The notes below the pieces were generated by a model, which saw only the letters and a list, made by a program, of their open reading frames with translations, ran no database searches and had not been told where the DNA came from. Made by a program: the position numbers and the translations under genes. A stretch of DNA of 18,904 nt from Promethearchaeota archaeon. GTDB taxonomy: Archaea > Asgardarchaeota > Lokiarchaeia > Sigyniarchaeales > SOKP01. Positions 2,177 through 18,904 of the stretch are shown one piece after another; the first letter of the stretch is position 1, and the number at the start of each line of letters is the position of its first letter. The stretch is from NCBI GenBank assembly GCA_016930515.1, contig JAFGGO010000094.1, positions 1 through 18,904 of the forward strand. Direction: 5' to 3'.

Positions 2177-3079
2177 ATGTCAAACAAAATTAATATAGCA
2201 GAACCAGAAGAGGATCTCAGATTCATTGATGTTCATTGTCACTTGCCGTTTCCTCGTCCTAAGAACGACACGCTTCCTTCCGACGAGGAGCAGTACGAGT
2301 CTTATTTCAAGATCGGTGGCGTATACTTGATTACTTGCTCGATTGATATGAAAACCTTGCGTTTAATCCTTCCATTTGTCAAAGGGAAAAAAAATATGGG
2401 ATTCACATGTGGATGGGCACCTCAGACAGTGACATATACACCTAAACAGCAATATCTAGATGAATGGAAGAAATGGATCGAATATGTAACATACAATTCG
2501 AACGATTTCTTGGCCATTGGGGAGGTTGGTCTAGATTTTCACCACGCAAAAGATCTAAACAAAAGAAATCAGCAAGTTGAAGCTTTAAGGAATATTTTTG
2601 AAAAAACCGAAGACCTTGGAAAACCTTATGTTTTACATGTGAGAAACGCCACAGAATACGAGCGTGATGAAAATACTCCGGATCATTCCTTTAACGAGAA
2701 AGATGGCGCAAACAGGGAAATTCTCAAGATTTTAAAAGAATTCAATATAAAACCTAAAAATGTAATGTGGCACTGTTTCTCCGGTCCAGAAGAATACGGA
2801 GAACGCTTAGCGAAGCAAGGATTCCTTCTTTCTGTTCCAAGTTCTTCGTTTGGGTTTATCCGATGGCGGAAGGCTTTCGGAAACGCTCCTTTGGGATCAT
2901 TAGTAACCGAGACCGATAGTTATTATCAACATCCTTTTAAACGAGGTCCCGTGAATGTACCCTCTAACGCTCGTTATTCAATAGCTGCTATCGCTCACGC
3001 TCGCAACGAACCTCAAAAAAAAGTAAGTAAGATCACTGTGGCAAATGCCGTTAAATTCTTTAGATTAGAATTGTTATAA
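2177..3079 (+). CDS. tatD: TatD-family metal-dependent hydrolase (DNase)
   Basis: TatD motifs in the expected order: IDVHCHL, AIGEVGLD, VLHVR, WHCFSG, LVTETD. Confidence 0.9.
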   Translation: MSNKINIAEPEEDLRFIDVHCHLPFPRPKNDTLPSDEEQYESYFKIGGVYLITCSIDMKTLRLILPFVKGKKNMGFTCGWAPQTVTYTPKQQYLDEWKKWIEYVTYNSNDFLAIGEVGLDFHHAKDLNKRNQQVEALRNIFEKTEDLGKPYVLHVRNATEYERDENTPDHSFNEKDGANREILKILKEFNIKPKNVMWHCFSGPEEYGERLAKQGFLLSVPSSSFGFIRWRKAFGNAPLGSLVTETDSYYQHPFKRGPVNVPSNARYSIAAIAHARNEPQKKVSKITVANAVKFFRLELL

Positions 3080-3148
3080 TTATTTCATATTAATCTTTTA
3101 TTTAATAACCGTATTATGATTTAAAAAGATAGTAAGAAAAGTAAAAAT

Positions 3149-4192
3149 CTAAGTGGAAAGATTAATCAATGAATGTTCTACGAATTTTAAAGGATTGTTT
3201 GCGTATCCTGAAAAATCCAACCCTCCGAGTTTATTGAGTAAATCCTCGGGGATCTGGGTTTCTTTCAACCATAAAGAAGTCAGATTCATCAAGGCTTCGA
3301 GCCCTTTCACTTCCATTATCTCATTTTCTCCAATATCGAGAGTGTGTAGATTACTTAAGGTTTCGAGTCCTTTAATTTCTCTGATGTTATTTGAAGAAAG
3401 AAATAATTTTTCCAAGTTTACCAGAGAGACCAACCCCTTGATTTCGGTAATGTCGTTTTCCTTGAGGTTTAAGATTTTAAGATTCGTTAGAGTATCGAGC
3501 CCTTCAATTATTTGTATTTGGTTTCCATTTAACCATAAGGTTTCCAAGTTTTCTAAAACCTCCAAACCTTTTATTTTGGATAACTGGCAGTTATTTAAAT
3601 ATAATTCCCTGAGTCCCATAATGTGTTTTAATCCAGTGATGTCTTTGATGGGATTTCCGCTTATGTTCAAAATCTTAAGGTTCATAAGCCTATCTAAGCC
3701 TGAGATCTGCGAAATTTGATTTCCCGAAAGCCAAAGCGCTTCGAGATTCTCTAAATGTTCGAGGTTAAAAATTTCTGTAATCATATTCCAAGAAAAATCG
3801 AGCTTTTGCAAGTTTTTAAGTTCTTCAAGACCTTCAATTTTCGTTATTTGATTACCTCTGAGGTGCAATTCCTTCAAATTTTTCAAGGCATCAAGACCTT
3901 TTATTTCAGAAATCTCGTTGCTTGTCAAATGGAGAACCTCTAAATTGCTCAAACCTTCCAGACCGGATATTGCTTTTATGTTATTACTTCCAATGTTCAG
4001 TATTTCGAGTTCGTGGAGCTTTTCCAACCCTGTGATGGCTGTAATTTCGTTCGAACTAAGCTCTAAATTTTTTAAACCCTTAAGTTTTTTAAGGCCTTGT
4101 ATTTCTTCGATATTTTTTATCTCTAACAATCCTAAATCTAAAAAACCGTCTTTCATCTCGTAGATTGTGCCATTAAATTCTACTTCCGACAT
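3149..4192 (-). CDS. Leucine-rich repeat protein, SDS22-like 22-residue repeats
   Basis: About 13 tandem 22-aa repeats of consensus LxxLxNLxxLxLxxNxIxxIxG; no signal peptide or TM segment. Confidence 0.93.
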   Translation of the reverse strand: MSEVEFNGTIYEMKDGFLDLGLLEIKNIEEIQGLKKLKGLKNLELSSNEITAITGLEKLHELEILNIGSNNIKAISGLEGLSNLEVLHLTSNEISEIKGLDALKNLKELHLRGNQITKIEGLEELKNLQKLDFSWNMITEIFNLEHLENLEALWLSGNQISQISGLDRLMNLKILNISGNPIKDITGLKHIMGLRELYLNNCQLSKIKGLEVLENLETLWLNGNQIQIIEGLDTLTNLKILNLKENDITEIKGLVSLVNLEKLFLSSNNIREIKGLETLSNLHTLDIGENEIMEVKGLEALMNLTSLWLKETQIPEDLLNKLGGLDFSGYANNPLKFVEHSLINLST

Positions 4193-4840: not shown

Positions 4841-5794
4841 CTATTCTTTCTGTTTTAATCGTTCTTTTTTCGCTTTCCTTCTATCTTCAATTTTTTCCTT
4901 TTGGTGTTGTATTCGCTCTTTCAACGAGATATGTTCGGCTTGTTCATCGTGTCTCCTGAGGTATAAGTTATCGTATTTTTCTCTTAAGGTATCATAATCT
5001 CCAACATGTTCTTTAATTACGCTTTCTAGGTTTTTTTCGAAAAACCTGTTTTTTTTAAACTTTTTTGCGGGAATTCCCACATAAATCCAATCTTTCTCGA
5101 GCACTTGACCTACTGTTGTAGCAGAAGCTGCTGCAAGAACGCAATTATCCTGAACCTCCGTACCGGGCATGATAATAGCGTGTGTTCCAATTCGAGAGTT
5201 ATCCTTGATTGTTGTCTTTCTTATAATTAAAAGATTGCCTACAATAACTGCTGACTGAATAATTGCTCCCTGTCCAACCACGACATTATTACCAAATTCT
5301 ATAAATTCGCAATCTACCCATCCTTCAAAAAGCGAGTTGGAAAACTTCGTTTTGACACCAAACATTTTAAAACAAAGATTGTCCAAAAAGGGAAACGGAA
5401 ATTTATGGGATAACCAGATAGGCCATCTTTTGATGATATTCCTTATGTTCCAATAACGATAATCCTTATCTGAGGGATCGCGAAGAAAAACTCCTTCTCG
5501 AGGTTTGTGGATTAAATTAACGAATCCTAAGAGTAATTTAGCAAACACAAGCGATACCAATACGGCTGTTAGATACATTATGAATAATACCAAGGGAAGT
5601 AATAAATAAAAATGAATGTCCCGCCACGCAAAAATAAATTGCCAATTGTACATTTCCTGCCAAAACACCCAAAATTCAAGCAAGATTGAAGCCATGCTAA
5701 CCCACATTAAGAACGCATAAAGTAATGCGTATTTTTTCTTGACCAATATGGTTGTTGTAAACGGTCCTGCTTGTATTGATGATGGTACGCTCAT
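4841..5794 (-). CDS. Membrane-anchored left-handed beta-helix (hexapeptide repeat) acyltransferase-like protein, type C' (paralog of 7706..8626)
   Basis: Two N-terminal TM helices, HKPREGVFLRDPSDKDYRYW, hexapeptide repeats (FGNNVVVGQGAII, IKDNSRIGTHAIIMPG), terminal YVGIPAK. Confidence 0.88.
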   Translation of the reverse strand: MSVPSSIQAGPFTTTILVKKKYALLYAFLMWVSMASILLEFWVFWQEMYNWQFIFAWRDIHFYLLLPLVLFIMYLTAVLVSLVFAKLLLGFVNLIHKPREGVFLRDPSDKDYRYWNIRNIIKRWPIWLSHKFPFPFLDNLCFKMFGVKTKFSNSLFEGWVDCEFIEFGNNVVVGQGAIIQSAVIVGNLLIIRKTTIKDNSRIGTHAIIMPGTEVQDNCVLAAASATTVGQVLEKDWIYVGIPAKKFKKNRFFEKNLESVIKEHVGDYDTLREKYDNLYLRRHDEQAEHISLKERIQHQKEKIEDRRKAKKERLKQKE

Positions 5795-5817
5795 TTTTTA
5801 ATCGTCTTTTTATTTAT

Positions 5818-6741
5818 TTATTCTTGGGTGATTAAGTCTTTCTTATCTTCGTCAATATTTACCTCGTGCTTTACTTCATAATAACTCTCGTTGTCGACAT
5901 CGCGCATTTTGATTATATCTCTTCTTGATTCTGCATACTTGTTTTCTTTTATCTTCTGAGGTGGTACTCCCATATAAATCCATCCCTCTTCAAATATTTG
6001 ATTGTAATTAGTAACTGATAGTGCAGCGATAACCGTGTCCTTTCCAACAATACTACCTGGAGCAATAGTGCAATGTCCGCCAAGAACAACATAATCGTCT
6101 AAAATAATTTTCTTGATTATCAAGTAATTACCAACGATCATTGAACCCATCAATGTCACGCCTTGTCCTACTAAAACATTTCTTCCCATCTTTACAAATT
6201 CTAAGTCGCACCACGCATCGTGTAAGTGGCTTGAAAAATCGAGATTTAACCCGAACCAGCGAAAACCGAGTATGTCGATAAGGGGCGTCGGAGAATTGTT
6301 CATGAACCATATAACCAGCTTTTTTATTTCAGTTCTTAAGCACCAAAATTCAAAATCCGAGTTTCCTTTTTCGGCGAGAAATATTCCTTCTTTTGGTTTA
6401 TGAATGAGGTTTATTAAAACAAGAAATAACTTACTTAAACATATACAGGATAAAATGAACAAGTAATACATTGCAAGGAGTATCAAGGGAAATAATGCGA
6501 TTTGGAGGATCCATAATAAGGGATTTTCGTTGACCGCAAACCAGATGTATTGATAAAAAACGACCCCTACAAAGAAACCGCTCAGCCATAATATGGGAAT
6601 ATAAATTATTAGGAATTTTACGCTCATCCTGCTAATTGCGCTACTCGTGGTAAAATCGAGTAAATAATCGTCCTTAGACTCTTCTATTTTAACCTGTTCT
6701 TCCATATTAACAGTTCTATCTTCTTCTTCAGATTCGATCAT
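5818..6741 (-). CDS. Membrane-anchored left-handed beta-helix acyltransferase-like protein, type B' (paralog of 8623..9558)
   Basis: Two TM helices, HKPKEGIFLAE, DAWCDLEF, hexapeptide repeats (MGRNVLVGQG, LDDYVVLGGHCTIAPG), YMGVPP. Confidence 0.88.
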   Translation of the reverse strand: MIESEEEDRTVNMEEQVKIEESKDDYLLDFTTSSAISRMSVKFLIIYIPILWLSGFFVGVVFYQYIWFAVNENPLLWILQIALFPLILLAMYYLFILSCICLSKLFLVLINLIHKPKEGIFLAEKGNSDFEFWCLRTEIKKLVIWFMNNSPTPLIDILGFRWFGLNLDFSSHLHDAWCDLEFVKMGRNVLVGQGVTLMGSMIVGNYLIIKKIILDDYVVLGGHCTIAPGSIVGKDTVIAALSVTNYNQIFEEGWIYMGVPPQKIKENKYAESRRDIIKMRDVDNESYYEVKHEVNIDEDKKDLITQE

Positions 6742-6742
6742 A

Positions 6743-7675
6743 TCAATCCGTTTCCTTTATTCCCTCATTTTTCATCAAATCCTTTTTTAAAGAAGCGAAC
6801 TTGTTTTTAAGTTCGTCATCTCTTTCCAAATCTTCCTTGGTTATTTGCAAGTATTCCATTGTTTTTCTCTTAAATATTCTACGTAAGGGAATTCCATAAT
6901 AGTAGTTATCACCCTTGACGGCGTTAAATTTTGATGCAGAGGCTAATGGTAATAAGTATGCGTTGTCGTTAATTTCGCATCCGGGGGAAATAGCATTTGA
7001 TGCCGCCATCGTAACATTATCGCCGATTTTAACTTTAAAATACGAAATATTTCCAAATGTTCCATCAACCATATGCGATGTCGTGATGCTATTTGGTCCG
7101 ATGTAGCTATTCTCTCCAATTTGTATAAATCTATCTCCGCATACTTGTTCTTCCATCGTTGATCCCTTACCAATTTTATTGGAACCAACAAAATTATACA
7201 TCCACCTGATCAACCATGGAAGTGGACCCTTGGAAAAGGCATTTTTTGGATATTTAATCATAAACGATCGAATGTGATAAAAATTCAATATCCTACTTGG
7301 AATATTACGAGGGATGACGCCATTTTTTGAAGGTTGTAGCTTTTCGCTTAAATTCCACCAGAATCGAACGATTAAAGCGACGAAAAAGAGGTGTGTTAAA
7401 TAACAAACAACTACAACTATTGGAAAAGCAATGAAAGTTATTAAGGATAATGGTTCGGTAAATAATGATATTATACTTTTCGTTTGTAATACATAAGGAT
7501 ATAGAAAAAATAATGCGTATAAAAAGAAAATAATGCTTGGAACGAAAAACGATCCTAGATATGTTGTAAAAAAGGTGAGTATATGCCAATAAGGTTGTTT
7601 CTTTATCTCTTCTTTTATTACTTCTTTAGTCCCGTTTGAGTTTTGATCGGTTTCTTCATAATTTTCTTCAAGCAA
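6743..7675 (-). CDS. Membrane-anchored left-handed beta-helix acyltransferase-like protein, type A' (paralog of 9555..10481); TTG start
   Basis: Two TM helices, GVIPRNI...YHIRSF, hexapeptide repeats (IGKGSTM, IGENSYIG, IGDNVTM), TSHMVDG, YYGIP; TTG at 7673-7675 with GGGGTA upstream. Confidence 0.87.
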   Translation of the reverse strand: MLEENYEETDQNSNGTKEVIKEEIKKQPYWHILTFFTTYLGSFFVPSIIFFLYALFFLYPYVLQTKSIISLFTEPLSLITFIAFPIVVVVCYLTHLFFVALIVRFWWNLSEKLQPSKNGVIPRNIPSRILNFYHIRSFMIKYPKNAFSKGPLPWLIRWMYNFVGSNKIGKGSTMEEQVCGDRFIQIGENSYIGPNSITTSHMVDGTFGNISYFKVKIGDNVTMAASNAISPGCEINDNAYLLPLASASKFNAVKGDNYYYGIPLRRIFKRKTMEYLQITKEDLERDDELKNKFASLKKDLMKNEGIKETD

Positions 7676-7705
7676 TAAATAAATACCCCATAAATATCCG
7701 TAATT

Positions 7706-8626
7706 TTAGGGTTCAAACCCTTTTATTAACCTTCTTTTTTCTTCTTCCTTCTTTTTTTTTAACAAGTGTTTTCGTTCCTTCCACGATAGGTCTTTGTCGT
7801 ACCATTTAGTGAATTTTTCTTCGTACTCATCTCGAAGTACTTCGATGTCTTCCAAGTTTACAATCTTCTCTTCTATATTATCTTCAAAAAATCTATTTTT
7901 TTTATATTTTACGGCTGGTGCGCCAAGATATATCCAACCCTCTTCTAGAACCTGTCCAACAGTAGTTACCGAGTTAACGGCGAGCATGCAATTCTTTTTA
8001 ATGTGCGTTCCAGGCATGACTACAGCATGGCCTCCAATCCTCACATTATCTTCTATAATTGTCTTCTTAACGATGAACAAGTTCCCAACTATCAAAGCCG
8101 ACTGAACGATACTCGCCTGACCTAAAATCACATTCTTTCCAAATTCGACTAATTCGCAATCGACCCATCCTTCAAAAAGGGAGTTCGACAAGCTTGTTTT
8201 TACTCCGAACATTTTAAAACATAGATTATCTAAAAATGGAAGGGGAAATCTATGAGATATCCACGCTGGCCACCATTTGATGGTATTTCTTAAACTCCAA
8301 AATCGATAATCCTTATTAGATGGATCTCGAAGAAAAACGCCTTCCCGAGGCTTATGAAACATTTTTACGAATATCAATAATAGTTTTGCAAAAATTAGTG
8401 AGATTAATATTGATGTGATGTAAATAAAAAAGATCATGGGAATGAGAAAAATATAGAAAAATATTGGCGGAAAAATTTGGTACGCAATTTTCCAATAGAA
8501 AAAAAACTCTATAATAGCTGATAACATTGAGATCCAGAACAGAAATAGGTAACATATAAGGTATCTTTTTTTTACCAACACTAATGAAGCAAATGGACCT
8601 GCTTTTAAACTCGCTGGAACGCTCAT
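7706..8626 (-). CDS. Membrane-anchored left-handed beta-helix acyltransferase-like protein, type C
   Basis: MSVPASLKAGPF N-terminus, HKPREGVFLRDPSNKDYRFW, SNSLFEGWVDCE, hexapeptide repeats, YLGAPA; ATGA overlap with upstream gene (8623-8626). Confidence 0.88.
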   Translation of the reverse strand: MSVPASLKAGPFASLVLVKKRYLICYLFLFWISMLSAIIEFFFYWKIAYQIFPPIFFYIFLIPMIFFIYITSILISLIFAKLLLIFVKMFHKPREGVFLRDPSNKDYRFWSLRNTIKWWPAWISHRFPLPFLDNLCFKMFGVKTSLSNSLFEGWVDCELVEFGKNVILGQASIVQSALIVGNLFIVKKTIIEDNVRIGGHAVVMPGTHIKKNCMLAVNSVTTVGQVLEEGWIYLGAPAVKYKKNRFFEDNIEEKIVNLEDIEVLRDEYEEKFTKWYDKDLSWKERKHLLKKKKEEEKRRLIKGFEP

Positions 8627-9558
8627 TCGAGTTTTCCTCCATTGTTAGTGGCTAATCCTTTTTTATCCTCATCAATATTTATTTCGTGATTCTTTTTATA
8701 TTTCCTAAGACCATCAACATCTACAATTTTTATAATCGGTTTTCTTGATTCGGCAAATTTATTTGGTTTGAGTTCGATAGCAGGAATGCCAAAATAGATC
8801 CACCCTTCTTTAAGTACTTGCATGAAATTAGTTGTAGATAATGCTCCAACTACGGAATCTGATCCAATAAAAGTTCCAGGGGAAATTGTAGCGTGTCCAC
8901 CGATAACCACATAATCGTCTAAAAAAACCTGCTTAATGATCAAATACTTTCCAACGATATTTGCACTAAATATAATCGATCCTTGTCCTACTAAACCTTT
9001 TCGTCCTATTTGAATGAACTCTGGGTCAACCCATGCGTCGTACAAGCTGCTAGAAAAATCCATTTTAATACCAAACCAACGAAACGCCCAAGCGTCTATG
9101 AACGGAATTGGAGAATTACGGGTAAGCCATAATCCTATTTTTTTTATAGCAATTCGCAAACTCCAATAGCAATAATCCTTATTTTGTCGTTCAGCAAGGA
9201 AAATACCTTCCTTTGGTAAATGAACGAGATTAATTATGATGAGAAATACCTTACAACAAATCAAAACGCCAAAAACAAAAACCACATAAATTATAAATGC
9301 TTCAAATGGAAATATTACAATTATTAATATAAATCCAAACAAATTTTCGCTAATGAATTTAAATGCGATCACGAGTGCTTCAAAATACATGTAAAATACA
9401 ATTATTGCCCCAAAACCCCCTATCCAAAAAATAAGTAAATAAACAAAAATAAATCTCGAATTTACCTGACCCAAGGCGCTACTCGTGGCAAAATCAAGCC
9501 GGAAATCCTTTTCGTCACGATTTTTATTGGCGTTCTGAAGATTTTTTTCGTTAATCAT
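8623..9558 (-). CDS. Membrane-anchored left-handed beta-helix acyltransferase-like protein, type B
   Basis: LDFATSSA, two TM helices, HLPKEGIFLAE, DAWVDPEF, hexapeptide repeats, YFGIPA; ATGA overlap with upstream gene (9555-9558). Confidence 0.88.
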   Translation of the reverse strand: MINEKNLQNANKNRDEKDFRLDFATSSALGQVNSRFIFVYLLIFWIGGFGAIIVFYMYFEALVIAFKFISENLFGFILIIVIFPFEAFIIYVVFVFGVLICCKVFLIIINLVHLPKEGIFLAERQNKDYCYWSLRIAIKKIGLWLTRNSPIPFIDAWAFRWFGIKMDFSSSLYDAWVDPEFIQIGRKGLVGQGSIIFSANIVGKYLIIKQVFLDDYVVIGGHATISPGTFIGSDSVVGALSTTNFMQVLKEGWIYFGIPAIELKPNKFAESRKPIIKIVDVDGLRKYKKNHEINIDEDKKGLATNNGGKLE

Positions 9559-10481
9559 CGTTCTTCTTGAGATATATTTTTATTATCTTCTTGTATATTT
9601 CTTGGTATTTCTTGATTTATTTTCATTGATGTTCCAAGTTTGATTTGTTCGGGAGATAGTGCTAAATACTTTTGAATCTTCTTTATCGTTAATTTTCTCA
9701 TGGGCACGCCAAAATAATAATTCTTTCCGAGTACATTGAAATGCTTACCCGCATGGGCTGCTGGTAACAAGACAGAATTATCTCCTATTACACCTCCAGG
9801 ACCTGTGGCGTTCCATCCGCCCATCGTAACATTCTCTCCAATTTTAATTTTAAAATTTGAAATGTTCCCAAATATTCCCTCAACAACATGAGATGTAAGC
9901 ACGGAATTTACTCCTATATAGACATTCTTTCCAGTTTCTAAATATTTATCTGCACATACTTGCTCCTCTATTGTAGTACCTTTCCCAAGAGAATTAGTTT
10001 TCACGAAATTATATAACCAAGTTGTTAACCACGGAAATAATCCTTTTGAAAACATGTATTTTGGATATTTTATAATAAAAGAGCGAAGGTGGTAATAATT
10101 TAAAGTCTTGCTATGAATGTTCCTTGGGATGATACCGTCTCTTGAAGGGGACCTCTTTTCGGTTATTGCCCATAAAACGCGCGTTATTAATGCAATTAGA
10201 AACAAGCGTAAAAGGTAACAAAATAAGAAAACTATTGGGGTAATTAAAAGAATTAAAAGAGAATCTAATTGTGAAATTATAGCTAGAAAATTCTCAGCGA
10301 GCAAGATTTTTGGATAGAATAGGAATATGAAAAATAAAATGAATAATACACCCGCAACTATTAGCGACCCTAAATAAACTATGAAAAAGGACAAGAGAAA
10401 CCAGTGAAAATGAAGCTTTACTTCGTGCTTTGGTACTTCTAAATTAGTATTTTCGCTCTCGATTCTCTTTTCTGTCAACAT
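9555..10481 (-). CDS. Membrane-anchored left-handed beta-helix acyltransferase-like protein, type A (first gene of the six-gene operon)
   Basis: Two TM helices, GIIPRNI...YHLRSF, EEQVCAD, TSHVVEG, hexapeptide repeats, YFGVP; GAGGT SD upstream of the ATG. Confidence 0.88.
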   Translation of the reverse strand: MLTEKRIESENTNLEVPKHEVKLHFHWFLLSFFIVYLGSLIVAGVLFILFFIFLFYPKILLAENFLAIISQLDSLLILLITPIVFLFCYLLRLFLIALITRVLWAITEKRSPSRDGIIPRNIHSKTLNYYHLRSFIIKYPKYMFSKGLFPWLTTWLYNFVKTNSLGKGTTIEEQVCADKYLETGKNVYIGVNSVLTSHVVEGIFGNISNFKIKIGENVTMGGWNATGPGGVIGDNSVLLPAAHAGKHFNVLGKNYYFGVPMRKLTIKKIQKYLALSPEQIKLGTSMKINQEIPRNIQEDNKNISQEER

Positions 10482-15733: not shown

Positions 15734-17053
15734 TTGAAAATAAACGAAAATTCGTATTACATTGAGACTTACGGTTGTGTTTCAAACAAAGCTGACTCGC
15801 TCATCATGTCTGAAGTTTTGGATAAAGCGGGCTTTACGAAGACTACGCTTGAGGCTGCACAATATGTTATTGTAAACACTTGCGCTGTAAAAGAACAAAC
15901 TGAAAATAAGATAAAACAACGGTTGGGAGAATTAAACGCAATATTTGGGGCACTCCCTAATAAATATATTATAATTGCTGGCTGCTTGCCTCATGTGGAA
16001 TCTGGTTATGAAAAAAAACTCAAAAAAATAATTCCTTCCTATTCTGCCATTATTGATTTGGATAATATAAACGAGATTCCTGAAATATTTCGAATGTTAA
16101 AAAATAGTGCTAGGAACCAAATCTTTCCTGCAAATAAATCGATCGATAAAGCCAAGATCATAGTTAGTCCGCACCATAATAAGATAACGGGAATCGTGCC
16201 AATCTCAGAAGGTTGTCTTGGTTCGTGCACCTATTGTTGCGTTAAAAACGCTCGAGGTCGTTTAGTTTGTTATGATCCTCAAAATATATTTAATAATGTT
16301 AAGTACCAGCTCGAGCATGGCGTAAGACAGGTATATCTAACTTCGCAAGATTGTAGCACTTATCAATACGGGAACATTCGTCTCGTTGACCTGATAAAGG
16401 ATATTAGCTCGATAAAAAAAGATTTTTTTTTGAGGATGGGGATGATCAATCCAAGTTTCTTAATTGAAAATATATGTCAATTAGAACAAATTTTTAAGAT
16501 GAGAAACATCTATCAATTTTTACATGTGCCCATCCAATCGGGAAGTAATCTCGTTTTAGAACGAATGGAACGGCCTTATCTCATTTCTGATATCGTAGAA
16601 CCGCTTGAAAAGTTACGAAAACAATTTCCCTTTTTGACTATCTCTACCGATGTGATCTGCGGATTTCCTGGAGAAACTGAATACGATTTTTATCGAACGA
16701 TAAATTTCATAAAATGGTTAAAACCCGAGATACTGAATATTTCAAAGTTCACGCCGCGTCCAGGCACGAAAGCTAAGCACATGGAACAACTAGACGGGAA
16801 GGTTATAAAAAAGCGCTCTCTTCGAATTTCAAATGTCTTCAGGATGAGCCTGGAAAGAACAAACGAAAAGTGGTTGAATTGGAGCGGGAAGGTGTTAATG
16901 CTTCACCATGGACAAAAAGAGGGGCAAGCATTTGGGAGAAATTTTGCATATAAAAATGTGTTTATAGAAGATTACACTGGAACATTTGGAGAATTCGTTA
17001 GAGTAAAAATAACTCATGTTGATGGTTTTAACCTATTTGGGACTATTACTTAA
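15734..17053 (+). CDS. MiaB-like radical SAM tRNA methylthiotransferase, probably archaeal/eukaryotic t6A37 methylthiotransferase (e-MtaB/CDKAL1 type); TTG start
   Basis: UPF0004 domain (IETYGC..N.ADS, VNTCAV, IAGC), radical SAM motif CLGSCTYC, HVPIQSGS, DVICGFPGET, C-terminal TRAM-like domain. Confidence 0.9.
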   Translation: MKINENSYYIETYGCVSNKADSLIMSEVLDKAGFTKTTLEAAQYVIVNTCAVKEQTENKIKQRLGELNAIFGALPNKYIIIAGCLPHVESGYEKKLKKIIPSYSAIIDLDNINEIPEIFRMLKNSARNQIFPANKSIDKAKIIVSPHHNKITGIVPISEGCLGSCTYCCVKNARGRLVCYDPQNIFNNVKYQLEHGVRQVYLTSQDCSTYQYGNIRLVDLIKDISSIKKDFFLRMGMINPSFLIENICQLEQIFKMRNIYQFLHVPIQSGSNLVLERMERPYLISDIVEPLEKLRKQFPFLTISTDVICGFPGETEYDFYRTINFIKWLKPEILNISKFTPRPGTKAKHMEQLDGKVIKKRSLRISNVFRMSLERTNEKWLNWSGKVLMLHHGQKEGQAFGRNFAYKNVFIEDYTGTFGEFVRVKITHVDGFNLFGTIT

Positions 17054-17070
17054 TTTAAGTTTAAAAGAAT

Positions 17071-17084
17071 AAAATAAAAAAAAA
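17071..17084 (-). terminator. Oligo-T tract, probable terminator of the vhuA-hdrCB-vhuU transcript
   Basis: Minus strand reads TTTTTTTTTATTTT about 25 nt downstream of the SECIS-like hairpin, just before the convergent methylthiotransferase stop. Confidence 0.5.
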
Positions 17085-17108
17085 GTTAGTTTTAAGCCCG
17101 TGCGAGAG

Positions 17109-17152
17109 CCAGTCCCGTCCAATCCAAATTTTTTATTGAACGATCAACCTAA
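17109..17152 (-). promoter_or_regulatory. SECIS-like element (eukaryote-type kink-turn hairpin) overlapping the vhuU stop codon
   Basis: Minus-strand RNA UUAG-GUU-GA-U-CGUUCAAU-AAAAAAUUUGG-AUUGGACG-G-GA-CUGG: lower stem UUAG/CUGG, 3-nt bulge, tandem GA/GA, 8-bp upper stem (7 WC + 1 GU), loop starting with an A run. Folded by hand only. Confidence 0.75.
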
Positions 17153-17293
17153 ACCAACATTTAACTTTCGAGAATAGATCTCTTCGCCCCGCTCGTCAAC
17201 GACCGTGACGTGTGCGGCGCACGATAGTCAGCAATCAAAACATCTGACAATCATTTCCAATACATTAACTACTCCTTCTGGTACGTCACTCAT
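17144..17293 (-). CDS. vhuU: Selenocysteine-containing small subunit VhuU of F420-non-reducing [NiFeSe] hydrogenase (49 aa; Sec22 from in-frame TGA at 17228-17230)
   Basis: Hand translation MSDVPEGVVNVLEMIVRCFDC-U-LSCAAHVTVVDERGEEIYSRKLNVGLG*; matches the hydrogenase large-subunit C-terminal motif (E..R.yDPCxSCAxH) with TGA at the first ligand position; SD-like GAAGTGA upstream; starts 29 nt after hdrB. Confidence 0.92.
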
Positions 17294-17322
17294 CTTATTA
17301 TCACTTCGCATTTAAATTTGGT

Positions 17323-18201
17323 TTATTCGAGACCGTGTTTTTCTAACAGCTCCTTTGGCCTGGAACGATGGAATTTCATGCCCATTTCGTCCGATTTTAT
17401 ACCAAAAGACAAAGCCAAAAGCTCGGTTAAGTACAAGATCGGTAATCCGTAACTCTTGCCTGAGATCTTTTCTGCCTTTTTCTGGTTGGTATCAAACTGT
17501 TGGAAGCACGCTGGGCAAATCACGACAAACGCTTCTGCACCTGCCGCAATTGCACTATCCATTTTATTAGCAAGGATTTGCATGGATGGTTCTTCTTCTG
17601 TATTTCCAACGCCAGAACCACAACATAGCATTTCTTCCTCGTAATCCACGGGTGTTGCGCCGGTTGCCGCCACGAGTTCGCGCAACTTTTTAGGCTTCAT
17701 GGGATCGTCCGTCTGAACAAGTTCGGAAGGTCGATTGTAGTGGCAGCCAGTATGACACGCAACTTTTAGGCCTGTGAGTTCTTTGGTGACCATTTCCTTG
17801 ATCTTTTCCACACCGACTTCGTGTAAAACTTCCACGAAATGCTTTACGGTGGTGGTTCCTTTAAATTCTCTTCCTACTGCGCTCAGAATCTTGTTTATCT
17901 TTGCTTTTTCGTGTTCGTCGTGGTTTAGTTCCTTGTTAACGACCTTGAGCGTTTGAAAGCACCCGTTACACAAGGATACAATGTCTTTTCCTTCTTGTTC
18001 TGCAATCGTGAGGTTTCTGGCGCCCATTGCCAACCAGCTCGTATGATCAACCGAATTAAATCCCACGGGATCGGGACAACAAGCGAATGGAGCTTCCGAT
18101 GTTTTCACGCCGAGCTTGTCAAATACCTTTCTCGCTGACGCTTCAATAAAAGGAATCCTGTTTCCAATCGTACAACCTTGGAACATCTTATATTCTGTCA
18201 T
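17323..18201 (-). CDS. hdrB: Heterodisulfide reductase subunit B (CCG domains)
   Basis: FQGC, CCP, CNGC, HTGCH, CCG and CPAC motifs of two cysteine-rich CCG domains; adjacent to hdrC; GGAGG SD. Confidence 0.93.
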   Translation of the reverse strand: MTEYKMFQGCTIGNRIPFIEASARKVFDKLGVKTSEAPFACCPDPVGFNSVDHTSWLAMGARNLTIAEQEGKDIVSLCNGCFQTLKVVNKELNHDEHEKAKINKILSAVGREFKGTTTVKHFVEVLHEVGVEKIKEMVTKELTGLKVACHTGCHYNRPSELVQTDDPMKPKKLRELVAATGATPVDYEEEMLCCGSGVGNTEEEPSMQILANKMDSAIAAGAEAFVVICPACFQQFDTNQKKAEKISGKSYGLPILYLTELLALSFGIKSDEMGMKFHRSRPKELLEKHGLE

Positions 18202-18214
18202 CTTTATTCCTCCA

Positions 18215-18709
18215 TTATTTCTTTAAAATTACATTTAATTTTGTTTCGTTTAAGATTTTTTGAACCTCTTCAACACTAGGTTCTTCTACCTTGGGAAGGC
18301 CCAGTTGTTCCCTTCGCTTCTCAATAGCGGGTTGCATCGGAATTGCTTTTCCAGCGTCGTAAATCGTGGATGCTTGTGTCGTATAATAATCAGGACCTTC
18401 TCCCCTAGCAATGCTCATGTTTTTTAAGACTGTAAATATTTCCGTGAGCTCGATTTTCTGTGGACAGATCTCGTCGCAAGTATCGCAAACAGTACATCCC
18501 CAGATTGCAAAATTGTTTTTTTGACCATTGAAGACATTCAAACCCAAGAACGATAGCATTATATTTCCTCTCGGGTTGTATCTATCTGGTGCAACTTTTG
18601 AAACGGGGCACACATCAGTACATCGACCGCACTGGTAGCAATATTTTAAAGCGTCTTTTATGTTAGCATCCATTGCTTTTTTTCTAAGTTCGTAATCTAC
18701 ACTTACCAT
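18215..18709 (-). CDS. hdrC: Heterodisulfide reductase subunit C (2x[4Fe-4S])
   Basis: CYQCGRCTDVCP and WGCTVCDTCDEICP ferredoxin motifs; directly upstream of hdrB. Confidence 0.92.
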   Translation of the reverse strand: MVSVDYELRKKAMDANIKDALKYCYQCGRCTDVCPVSKVAPDRYNPRGNIMLSFLGLNVFNGQKNNFAIWGCTVCDTCDEICPQKIELTEIFTVLKNMSIARGEGPDYYTTQASTIYDAGKAIPMQPAIEKRREQLGLPKVEEPSVEEVQKILNETKLNVILKK

Positions 18710-18747: not shown

Positions 18748-18904
18748 TTATTTGATCCACGGATCCGGAAGCTTCAATCCGTCCAGTGCCTTGTCTTCGA
18801 ACACCTGCTTTGCCACGTGCATGAGGGTTTTTTCGATACCGGCGATGTTGTGATTCGTCGCCACCAGCAGGTTGGCCTTCTTGCACATGCCTTGAGCGTC
18901 GGAC
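18748..18904 (-). CDS. vhuA: 3' end (partial, runs off window) of a [NiFe]-hydrogenase large subunit, VhuA/MvhA type, lacking the C-terminal DPCxxC motif
   Basis: Hand translation ...SDAQGMCKKANLLVATNHNIAGIEKTLMHVAKQVFEDKALDGLKLPDPWIK*; D..G...KANL.VAT.HN is the conserved late segment of group 3 (Mvh/Vhu) large subunits; TAA at 18748-18750. Confidence 0.8.
   Translation of the reverse strand, partial: SDAQGMCKKANLLVATNHNIAGIEKTLMHVAKQVFEDKALDGLKLPDPWIK

Follow-up and report, generated by a model that had tools for sequence, protein, structure and literature searches.

A predicted selenocysteine-containing VhuU with a Loki-type SECIS at its stop codon closes a hydrogenase operon in a Lokiarchaeial genome

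Does the seemingly intergenic gap that follows hdrB in this Lokiarchaeial contig encode a protein whose reading frame runs through a TGA codon? The window analyzed here, meaning the whole stretch of 18,904 nucleotides, was first interpreted from its letters, and that sequence-only reading proposed a hidden selenoprotein, VhuU, in which an in-frame TGA takes the place of a nickel-ligating cysteine of a hydrogenase. Having compared the locus with known proteins, with related genomes and with published RNA elements, we place at about 95% the probability that the minus strand from 17293 to 17144 encodes VhuU as the last gene of a vhuG-vhuA-hdrC-hdrB-vhuU operon, with UGA predicted to be read as selenocysteine (Sec) by way of a Loki-type SECIS element (lokiSECIS). 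Locations of the features discussed are collected in Table 1.

Table 1. Features of the window, related vhuU copies and genes of the Sec machinery (plain numbers are window positions)
Feature	Location	Strand	Basis or remark
vhuU coding sequence	17144..17293	minus	49 codons and stop; translation, MvhA/VhuU alignments, NF041786, orthologues
vhuU start ATG	17293..17291	minus	translation
In-frame TGA, codon 22	17230..17228	minus	predicted to be read as Sec; replaces first Cys of DPCxxCxxH
vhuU stop TGA	17146..17144	minus	translation
Loki-type SECIS, three-armed	17085..17158	minus	MFE fold, covariation, geometry of PMC4989117
SECIS helix I, 5' strand	17158..17151	minus	inside codons 45-47
SECIS core U-UGA	17147..17144	minus	UGA is the vhuU stop codon
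SECIS helix II	17143..17135 paired with 17123..17115	minus	9 bp
SECIS apical loop	17134..17124	minus	11 nt, begins AAAAAA
SECIS 3' core GA	17114..17113	minus	
SECIS small side hairpin	within 17112..17095	minus	
SECIS helix I, 3' strand	17092..17085	minus	
Run of nine U	17076..17084	minus	directly after the SECIS; read from sequence
hdrB	17323..18201	minus	292 aa, two CCG domains; PF02754, E 5.5e-28
hdrC	18215..18709	minus	164 aa, 4Fe-4S dicluster
vhuA, truncated, last 51 codons	18751..18903	minus	runs off the contig end at 18903; stop 18750..18748
Six tandem paralogous genes	4841-5794, 5818-6741, 6743-7675, 7706-8626, 8623-9558, 9555-10481	minus	306-317 aa
Second vhuU copy	G000 C145:38217-38363 (L047:8218-8364)	minus	one residue different, R35Q
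Cys-form split vhuU	L077 (G039:C117) ~2992-3135	minus	TGT at the Sec position; behind a vhuA-like gene
SepSecS	contig C134		470 bits, over cut-off
SelD	contig C18		191 bits, over cut-off; one in-frame TGA of its own
EFSec-like	contig C27		238 bits against a cut-off of 242
PSTK-like	contig C20		129 bits against a cut-off of 290; best family match, full length
tRNA-Sec(UCA)	C27:123585-123631 + C134:32764-32706		split over two contig ends; BLAST

A short frame that continues past the TGA

Translation of the minus strand from 17293 to 17144 reproduces exactly the 49-residue peptide quoted in the sequence-only reading, which had named no strand for it. As the plus strand at 17144-17293 yields no frame on translation, vhuU is assigned to the minus strand. 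The list of open reading frames under table 11 contains none of at least 60 aa at the locus, which bears out the statement that the gene had been missed by the frame track. A phmmer search against all PDB sequences matched VhuU residues 3-29 to the C-termini of MvhA-type large subunits, among them 7t2r_D 425-451 (E 6.7e-5), 5odc_F 424-451 and 9sw2_F 424-450. Codon 22 aligns with the Cys of DPC in the MvhA chains, so the TGA does stand at the first nickel-ligating cysteine, as had been proposed. The same codon aligns with the X (Sec) of the solved methanococcal VhuU, 9sfi_M, a 27-residue chain of which residues 3-27 are covered by the alignment. What is found, then, is a small separate reading frame homologous to the C-terminal nickel-binding segment of Mvh/Vhu, with an in-frame UGA at the first Cys of DPCxxCxxH and with the Cys and His downstream of it.

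The best NCBIfam family of the peptide is VhuU itself (NF041786; E 4e-13, profile positions 4-42 of 45), at a score of 48.9 bits that falls short of the equivalog cut-off of 70 bits. On our assumption that the NCBIfam VhuU and VhuA equivalog cut-offs were fitted to methanogen sequences, this score speaks for a distant orthologue and not for exclusion from the family. The earlier reading had also passed over the motif at the predicted Sec, which is D-C-U and not D-P-U. Cys takes the place of the invariant Pro of DPC/DPU before the Sec position in 54 of the 59 Sec-type genes collected (the rest have Pro, Phe or Asn), and 52 of the 59 have an extra Cys three residues upstream; the fused hydrogenase of the same genome, on contig C104, keeps D-P-C.

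Conservation of orthologues beyond the TGA, and interchange of TGA with TGY at codon 22, had been named beforehand as checks, and each came out on the side of read-through. The vhuU gene was found in 56 of 61 related genomes, nearly all copies having exactly one in-frame TGA, and because both the frame and the sequence past the TGA are kept in these genomes, the peptide match and the downstream conservation are, as judged from the alignments, far beyond chance. Codon 22 is TGA in all 31 family-level vhuU genes aligned and in both paralogues of the genome, so the TGA is not a read error; in one relative the codon is TGT. Past the TGA, summed nucleotide diversity in the 31 family-level genes is 3.3, 0.66 and 11.5 at codon positions 1, 2 and 3, and codon differences from the window copy comprise 346 synonymous and 113 non-synonymous changes, a pattern like that before the TGA. 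Over codons 23-44 the third positions vary and the residues are invariant, one Arg for example being written with four codons, and the extension that follows His28 is under protein-level constraint.

The second copy of vhuU in the same genome, on contig C145, has many synonymous base differences from the window copy and compensatory changes in its SECIS stem. The TGT form occurs in genome G039, where it ends in TAA followed by a U tract and where a scan of the locus found no SECIS. The same genome holds a Sec form as well (G039:C15), a combination that recalls the Vhu/Vhc pair of Methanococcus.

Two hydrogenase clusters and the partner subunit

The hdrB gene, whose orthologues are 72-91% identical, stops 27 nt upstream of the vhuU start. 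At the other end of the cluster, and overlooked in the earlier reading, the contig edge cuts off all but the 3' end of vhuA. Its product ends in ...PDPWIK-stop, immediately short of the position at which the VhuU part of fused MvhA starts, and the fragment matches the VhuA chain 9sfi_g (418 residues) over residues 384-417. The same vhuA 3' sequence is found at the end of contig C145, and each of contigs C150 and C74 closes with vhuG and, behind it, the 5' part of vhuA. Evidently the assembly is broken inside two near-identical vhuA paralogues, and vhuA of the window cluster is not assembled in one piece.

Both clusters are intact on a 672-kb contig of the relative G028, in which type A has the order vhuG-vhuA-vhuU-hdrC-hdrB and type B the order vhuG-vhuA-hdrC-hdrB-vhuU. 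The window is of type B: compared with the type-B cluster of this relative, identity is 81% for HdrB and 79% for HdrC. The C145 copy sits in a type-A arrangement, vhuA-vhuU-hdrC-hdrB, with hypF about 3 kb downstream. A full-length orthologue of the type-B VhuA (in L084) has 434 aa and aligns with positions 3-417 of the 418 of the solved VhuA (E 7e-122). On MvhA, which has 473 residues, this protein spans only 3-416 and VhuU spans 424-451, which indicates that the two together tile the fused enzyme and that a partner VhuA lacking the C-terminal segment is encoded in the same cluster. As with VhuU, the NCBIfam equivalog cut-off for VhuA is not reached (464 against 800 bits). In nine MAG loci besides that of G028, found by way of HdrB and all from named Promethearchaeota MAGs, vhuU comes immediately after hdrB. 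No vhuU lies within 3 kb at L096 and L097, two loci whose HdrB shares 72-73% identity with that of the window, so the link between hdrB and vhuU is common and not universal.

Several other genes were noted along the way. The small subunit VhuG has about 461 aa (L048:267-1652, which is G000 C150; L084:4887-6272), of which only residues 13-168 match Oxidored_q6, with some 290 residues beyond the model. Elsewhere in the window, four of the six tandem paralogues on the minus strand at 4841-10481 give weak hexapeptide-repeat matches, and the other two match no Pfam family at E <= 1e-5. A leucine-rich-repeat protein of 347 aa (LRR_4, E 5e-62) is encoded on the minus strand at 3149-4192. Convergent to the vhu operon, on the plus strand at 15734-17053, lies a MiaB-like radical-SAM methylthiotransferase gene (UPF0004, Radical_SAM, TRAM), the end of which is 31 nt from the far end of the SECIS.

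The SECIS element and the selenocysteine machinery

Overlapping the vhuU stop codon is an RNA element that the earlier reading had overlooked. Codons 45-47 (GUUGGUUU) pair with the downstream sequence AAACUAAC as helix I, and in the minimum free energy fold a side hairpin between the core and the 3' strand of helix I makes the element three-armed. In the text of PMC4989117 the lokiSECIS is described as a stem of 9 bp above a UGA core, topped by a loop of 11 nt in which adenines are conserved, and the window element is alike in its UGA core, its 9-bp stem, its 11-nt loop led by a run of A and its GA. The likeness extends to the published VhuU.1, in which the SECIS core UGA is likewise the stop codon (PMC4989117). 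The published core is stated to be always AUGA (PMC4989117), whereas that of the window is UUGA; the first core base is U in the genome of the window and in three close relatives, as in the window copy, its C145 paralogue, L018 and L023, and A elsewhere. The element thus combines lokiSECIS geometry at the stop codon and compensatory changes with a first core base of U in place of A.

The structure is borne out in an alignment of 32 orthologous elements: 92% of SECIS cells are paired, a share that falls to about 50% once the partner is shifted by one column. Changes on both sides are seen in 12 of the 21 pairs; in helix II they occur in all seven inner pairs, with 98% of cells paired, and in helix I a U to C change at the third position of a Gly codon is matched seven times by A to G in its partner. 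None of 500 shuffles reached the observed pairing scores, a statistic that overstates significance as kin are not independent; neither the control with shifted partners nor the count of distinct pair types is affected by kinship. The fold energy of the whole region is no better than that of shuffles (z -0.78), so the structure rests on covariation and not on energy. The strict SECIS pattern fits 31 of the 40 Sec-form genes scanned, and most of the nine misses show the same hairpin by eye, with one extra base in the 5' stem or a similar deviation. An Rfam scan of 16800-17400 returned nothing relevant and no family matching the element. Among the nine misses, L067 and L070 (G037 and G044) have an odd core: the hairpin UUUUUCUC/GAGAAAAA lies 3' of vhuU with AUGC, and not AUGA, before it and GAAG after it, which may be a variant SECIS core of that genus. 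Archaeal terminators are oligo-U tracts, and the run of nine U directly behind the window SECIS is likely the transcript end of the operon.

The genome encodes the machinery that Sec insertion calls for, a point on which the proposal could have failed: SepSecS, SelD, EFSec-like and PSTK-like genes and a tRNA-Sec(UCA) are all present (Table 1). The tRNA gene is in two parts: C27 ends with its 5' portion and C134 with the remainder, and the two share an identical overlap of 31 nt. Once joined, the gene shows an acceptor stem of 9 bp and the anticodon UCA, and its T-loop is interrupted by about 30 nt of extra sequence (an intron); it lies between the EFSec-like gene and SepSecS, and it is 94-98% identical to genes of relatives that score over the Rfam cut-off, as tRNA-Sec does in 26 of 41 relatives' genomes. 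It was recovered only by BLAST with those relatives' tRNA-Sec genes. In the genome itself, the Rfam tRNA-Sec search gave only a tRNA-Ser(GCT) as its best match, an Rfam scan beside EFSec found nothing, and ARAGORN reported no tRNA-Sec, whether run on the complete genome or on the two contig ends once joined; the contig break through the gene, together with its T-loop intron, explains why it was missed. The published Loki tRNA-Sec is alike in both respects, its T-loop intron being 31 nt long and its gene lying near EFSec (text of PMC4989117).

A further frame was seen at L082 (G043:C520), on the minus strand about 7355 from the reverse-complement start. It looks like a thioredoxin fold, has an in-frame TGA in U-x-x-C, and is probably the Prx-like selenoprotein of published lists.

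Competing readings, known relatives and significance

Under table 11 the frame ends at codon 22, and the peptide alone gives Pfam PF00374, a model of the whole subunit, a weak match at its end (E 0.67). Both observations would suit a TGA that is a true stop, or a misassembled TGY, in front of a 21-codon non-functional remnant of a decayed hydrogenase C-terminus. To such decay we give almost no credence, given that independent assemblies keep the TGA in every one of the 31 family-level genes, as do both paralogues, that a strong coding signature runs on past it, that a covarying SECIS follows, and that VhuA lacks exactly the VhuU segment, leaving the nickel site incomplete without VhuU. UGA might instead be read as Cys or Trp, through near-cognate decoding or genome-wide recoding, so that the product would be a [NiFe] and not a [NiFeSe] enzyme; the Cys form of the split gene in one relative indicates that Cys is chemically acceptable at the site. 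However, TGA ends vhuU at codon 50 in the window's family (TAA or TAG in other families) and the remaining window genes have long open frames under table 11, which together exclude genome-wide recoding. Moreover, the SECIS is absent from the Cys form whereas the strict pattern is widespread among Sec-form genes, and a dedicated Sec pathway is encoded, down to a SelD with a TGA of its own, all of which makes reading as Cys or Trp very unlikely.

It could also be argued that the 3' half is conserved solely as RNA, be it SECIS or regulatory structure, and that no extension is translated, since codons 45-47 form helix I with the joint Gly-codon changes described above. A vhuU of another relative (L025, G015:C49) lends itself to the same argument, having an in-frame TAA six codons past the His with the downstream codons and SECIS kept; this TAA is either an error or a sign that the protein can do without most of the extension. 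Yet codons 23-44, which lie outside the RNA structure, show the third-position variation with invariant residues, and the SCAAH ligand motif sits past the TGA, so that conservation as RNA only is exceedingly improbable.

The proposal that UGA is recoded as Sec to give a [NiFeSe] site draws support from the Sec machinery, the conservation, the SECIS and the Sec/Cys pair. On this reading, VhuU is the part of a [NiFeSe] hydrogenase of group 3c (Mvh/Vhu-type) that forms the C-terminus of the large subunit and has a gene of its own, which in this member of the Lokiarchaeia (Promethearchaeota) closes the operon vhuG-vhuA-hdrC-hdrB-vhuU. At the UGA of codon 22, selenocysteine would be inserted through tRNA-Sec(UCA) and a factor of the EFSec type, with the eukaryote-like lokiSECIS as the signal and with the UGA of its core doubling as the vhuU stop codon; this second UGA would terminate translation because it lies inside the SECIS. 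Sec22 and Cys25 of VhuU would supply two of the four Ni/Fe ligands, alongside His28, and VhuA, of about 434 aa and without the C-terminal motif, would supply the other two Cys ligands. VhuU would then assemble with VhuA, VhuG, VhuD/HdrA and HdrBC into a cytoplasmic electron-bifurcating, hydrogen-cycling complex.

The sequence-only reading had further suggested that a maturation protease removes the 21 residues after His28. We infer that these residues would be cut off after metal insertion, and a candidate for this step is a protease of the HycI family that contig C30 encodes, which scores 67 bits against the model of the maturation-protease superfamily. The NCBIfam VhuU profile of 45 positions runs past the His as well, and the VhuU chain 9sfi_M, as deposited, has a single residue beyond it. 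Since the fused hydrogenase on C104 has its His as the last residue, cleavage is not needed by every hydrogenase of this genome.

In Methanococcales (NF041786 and NF041785; 9sfi_M and 9sfi_g) the large subunit is split at the same point, with Sec at the first Cys of the C-terminal nickel motif, then SCAAH, and a C-terminal extension past the His. The differences are that methanococcal VhuU reads ...RAYDP-Sec... whereas the window protein reads ...RCFDC-Sec..., that the host of the window is not a methanogen, and that the window VhuU and VhuA score below the equivalog cut-offs. The SECIS of methanogens is of the archaeal GAA_A type and lies in the 3'UTR, whereas that of the window is kink-turn-like; and vhuU of methanogens directly follows vhuA, whereas hdrC and hdrB stand between the two genes in the window. 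The same nickel-binding segment is found in fused MvhA of MvhAGD-HdrABC (5odc_F) and, in a Sec form too, in the periplasmic [NiFeSe] large subunit 5jsu_B. Unlike these single polypeptides, the window encodes the last 30 or so mature residues as a gene of its own.

That Lokiarchaeota use Sec, VhuU included, had been stated in the sequence-only reading and agrees with the literature. VhuU is one of five Lokiarchaeial selenoprotein families in the text of Mariotti et al. 2016 (PMC4989117), where it is alike in having about 50 codons and a single Sec, and 'FrhA/MvhA/VhuU' is given for 68% of Sec-using Asgard archaea in that of an ISME J 2024 paper (PMC11227280). With the family described in these archaea in 2016 and 2024, the finding is correct and the locus, lokiSECIS included, is already known in kind. 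Four details are not found in the text of the two papers, supplements aside, namely the order vhuA-hdrC-hdrB-vhuU, the D-C-U motif, the third SECIS hairpin and the overlap of helix I with the conserved last codons (PMC4989117 and PMC11227280). Gene order, D-C-Sec motif and the overlap of helix I with codons amount to a line of annotation and not to a new category.

Two of these details invite a proposal that, taken jointly, we regard as rather doubtful. By analogy with thioredoxin reductase, the vicinal Cys-Sec dyad could form a selenenylsulfide, which, if true, would be a redox or oxygen-protection switch at the nickel site, or a maturation handle. In type B, with vhuU moved behind hdrC-hdrB, the SECIS comes last in the operon, which could tie the completion of the active site of the hydrogenase to synthesis of its Hdr partners.

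For annotation the consequence is a practical one. Gene callers halt at the TGA and leave an annotated hydrogenase without two of its four metal ligands, with the result that the hydrogen metabolism of the organism would be misjudged, and hydrogen cycling by Mvh/Vhu-Hdr is central to current models of Asgard archaea living with partners. The eukaryote-like SECIS is, in addition, the main evidence that the eukaryotic Sec-decoding signal is older than eukaryotes. This locus offers a clean and well-supported example, with two paralogous clusters in one genome, a Sec/Cys pair among relatives, and a coding sequence that doubles as a SECIS stem.
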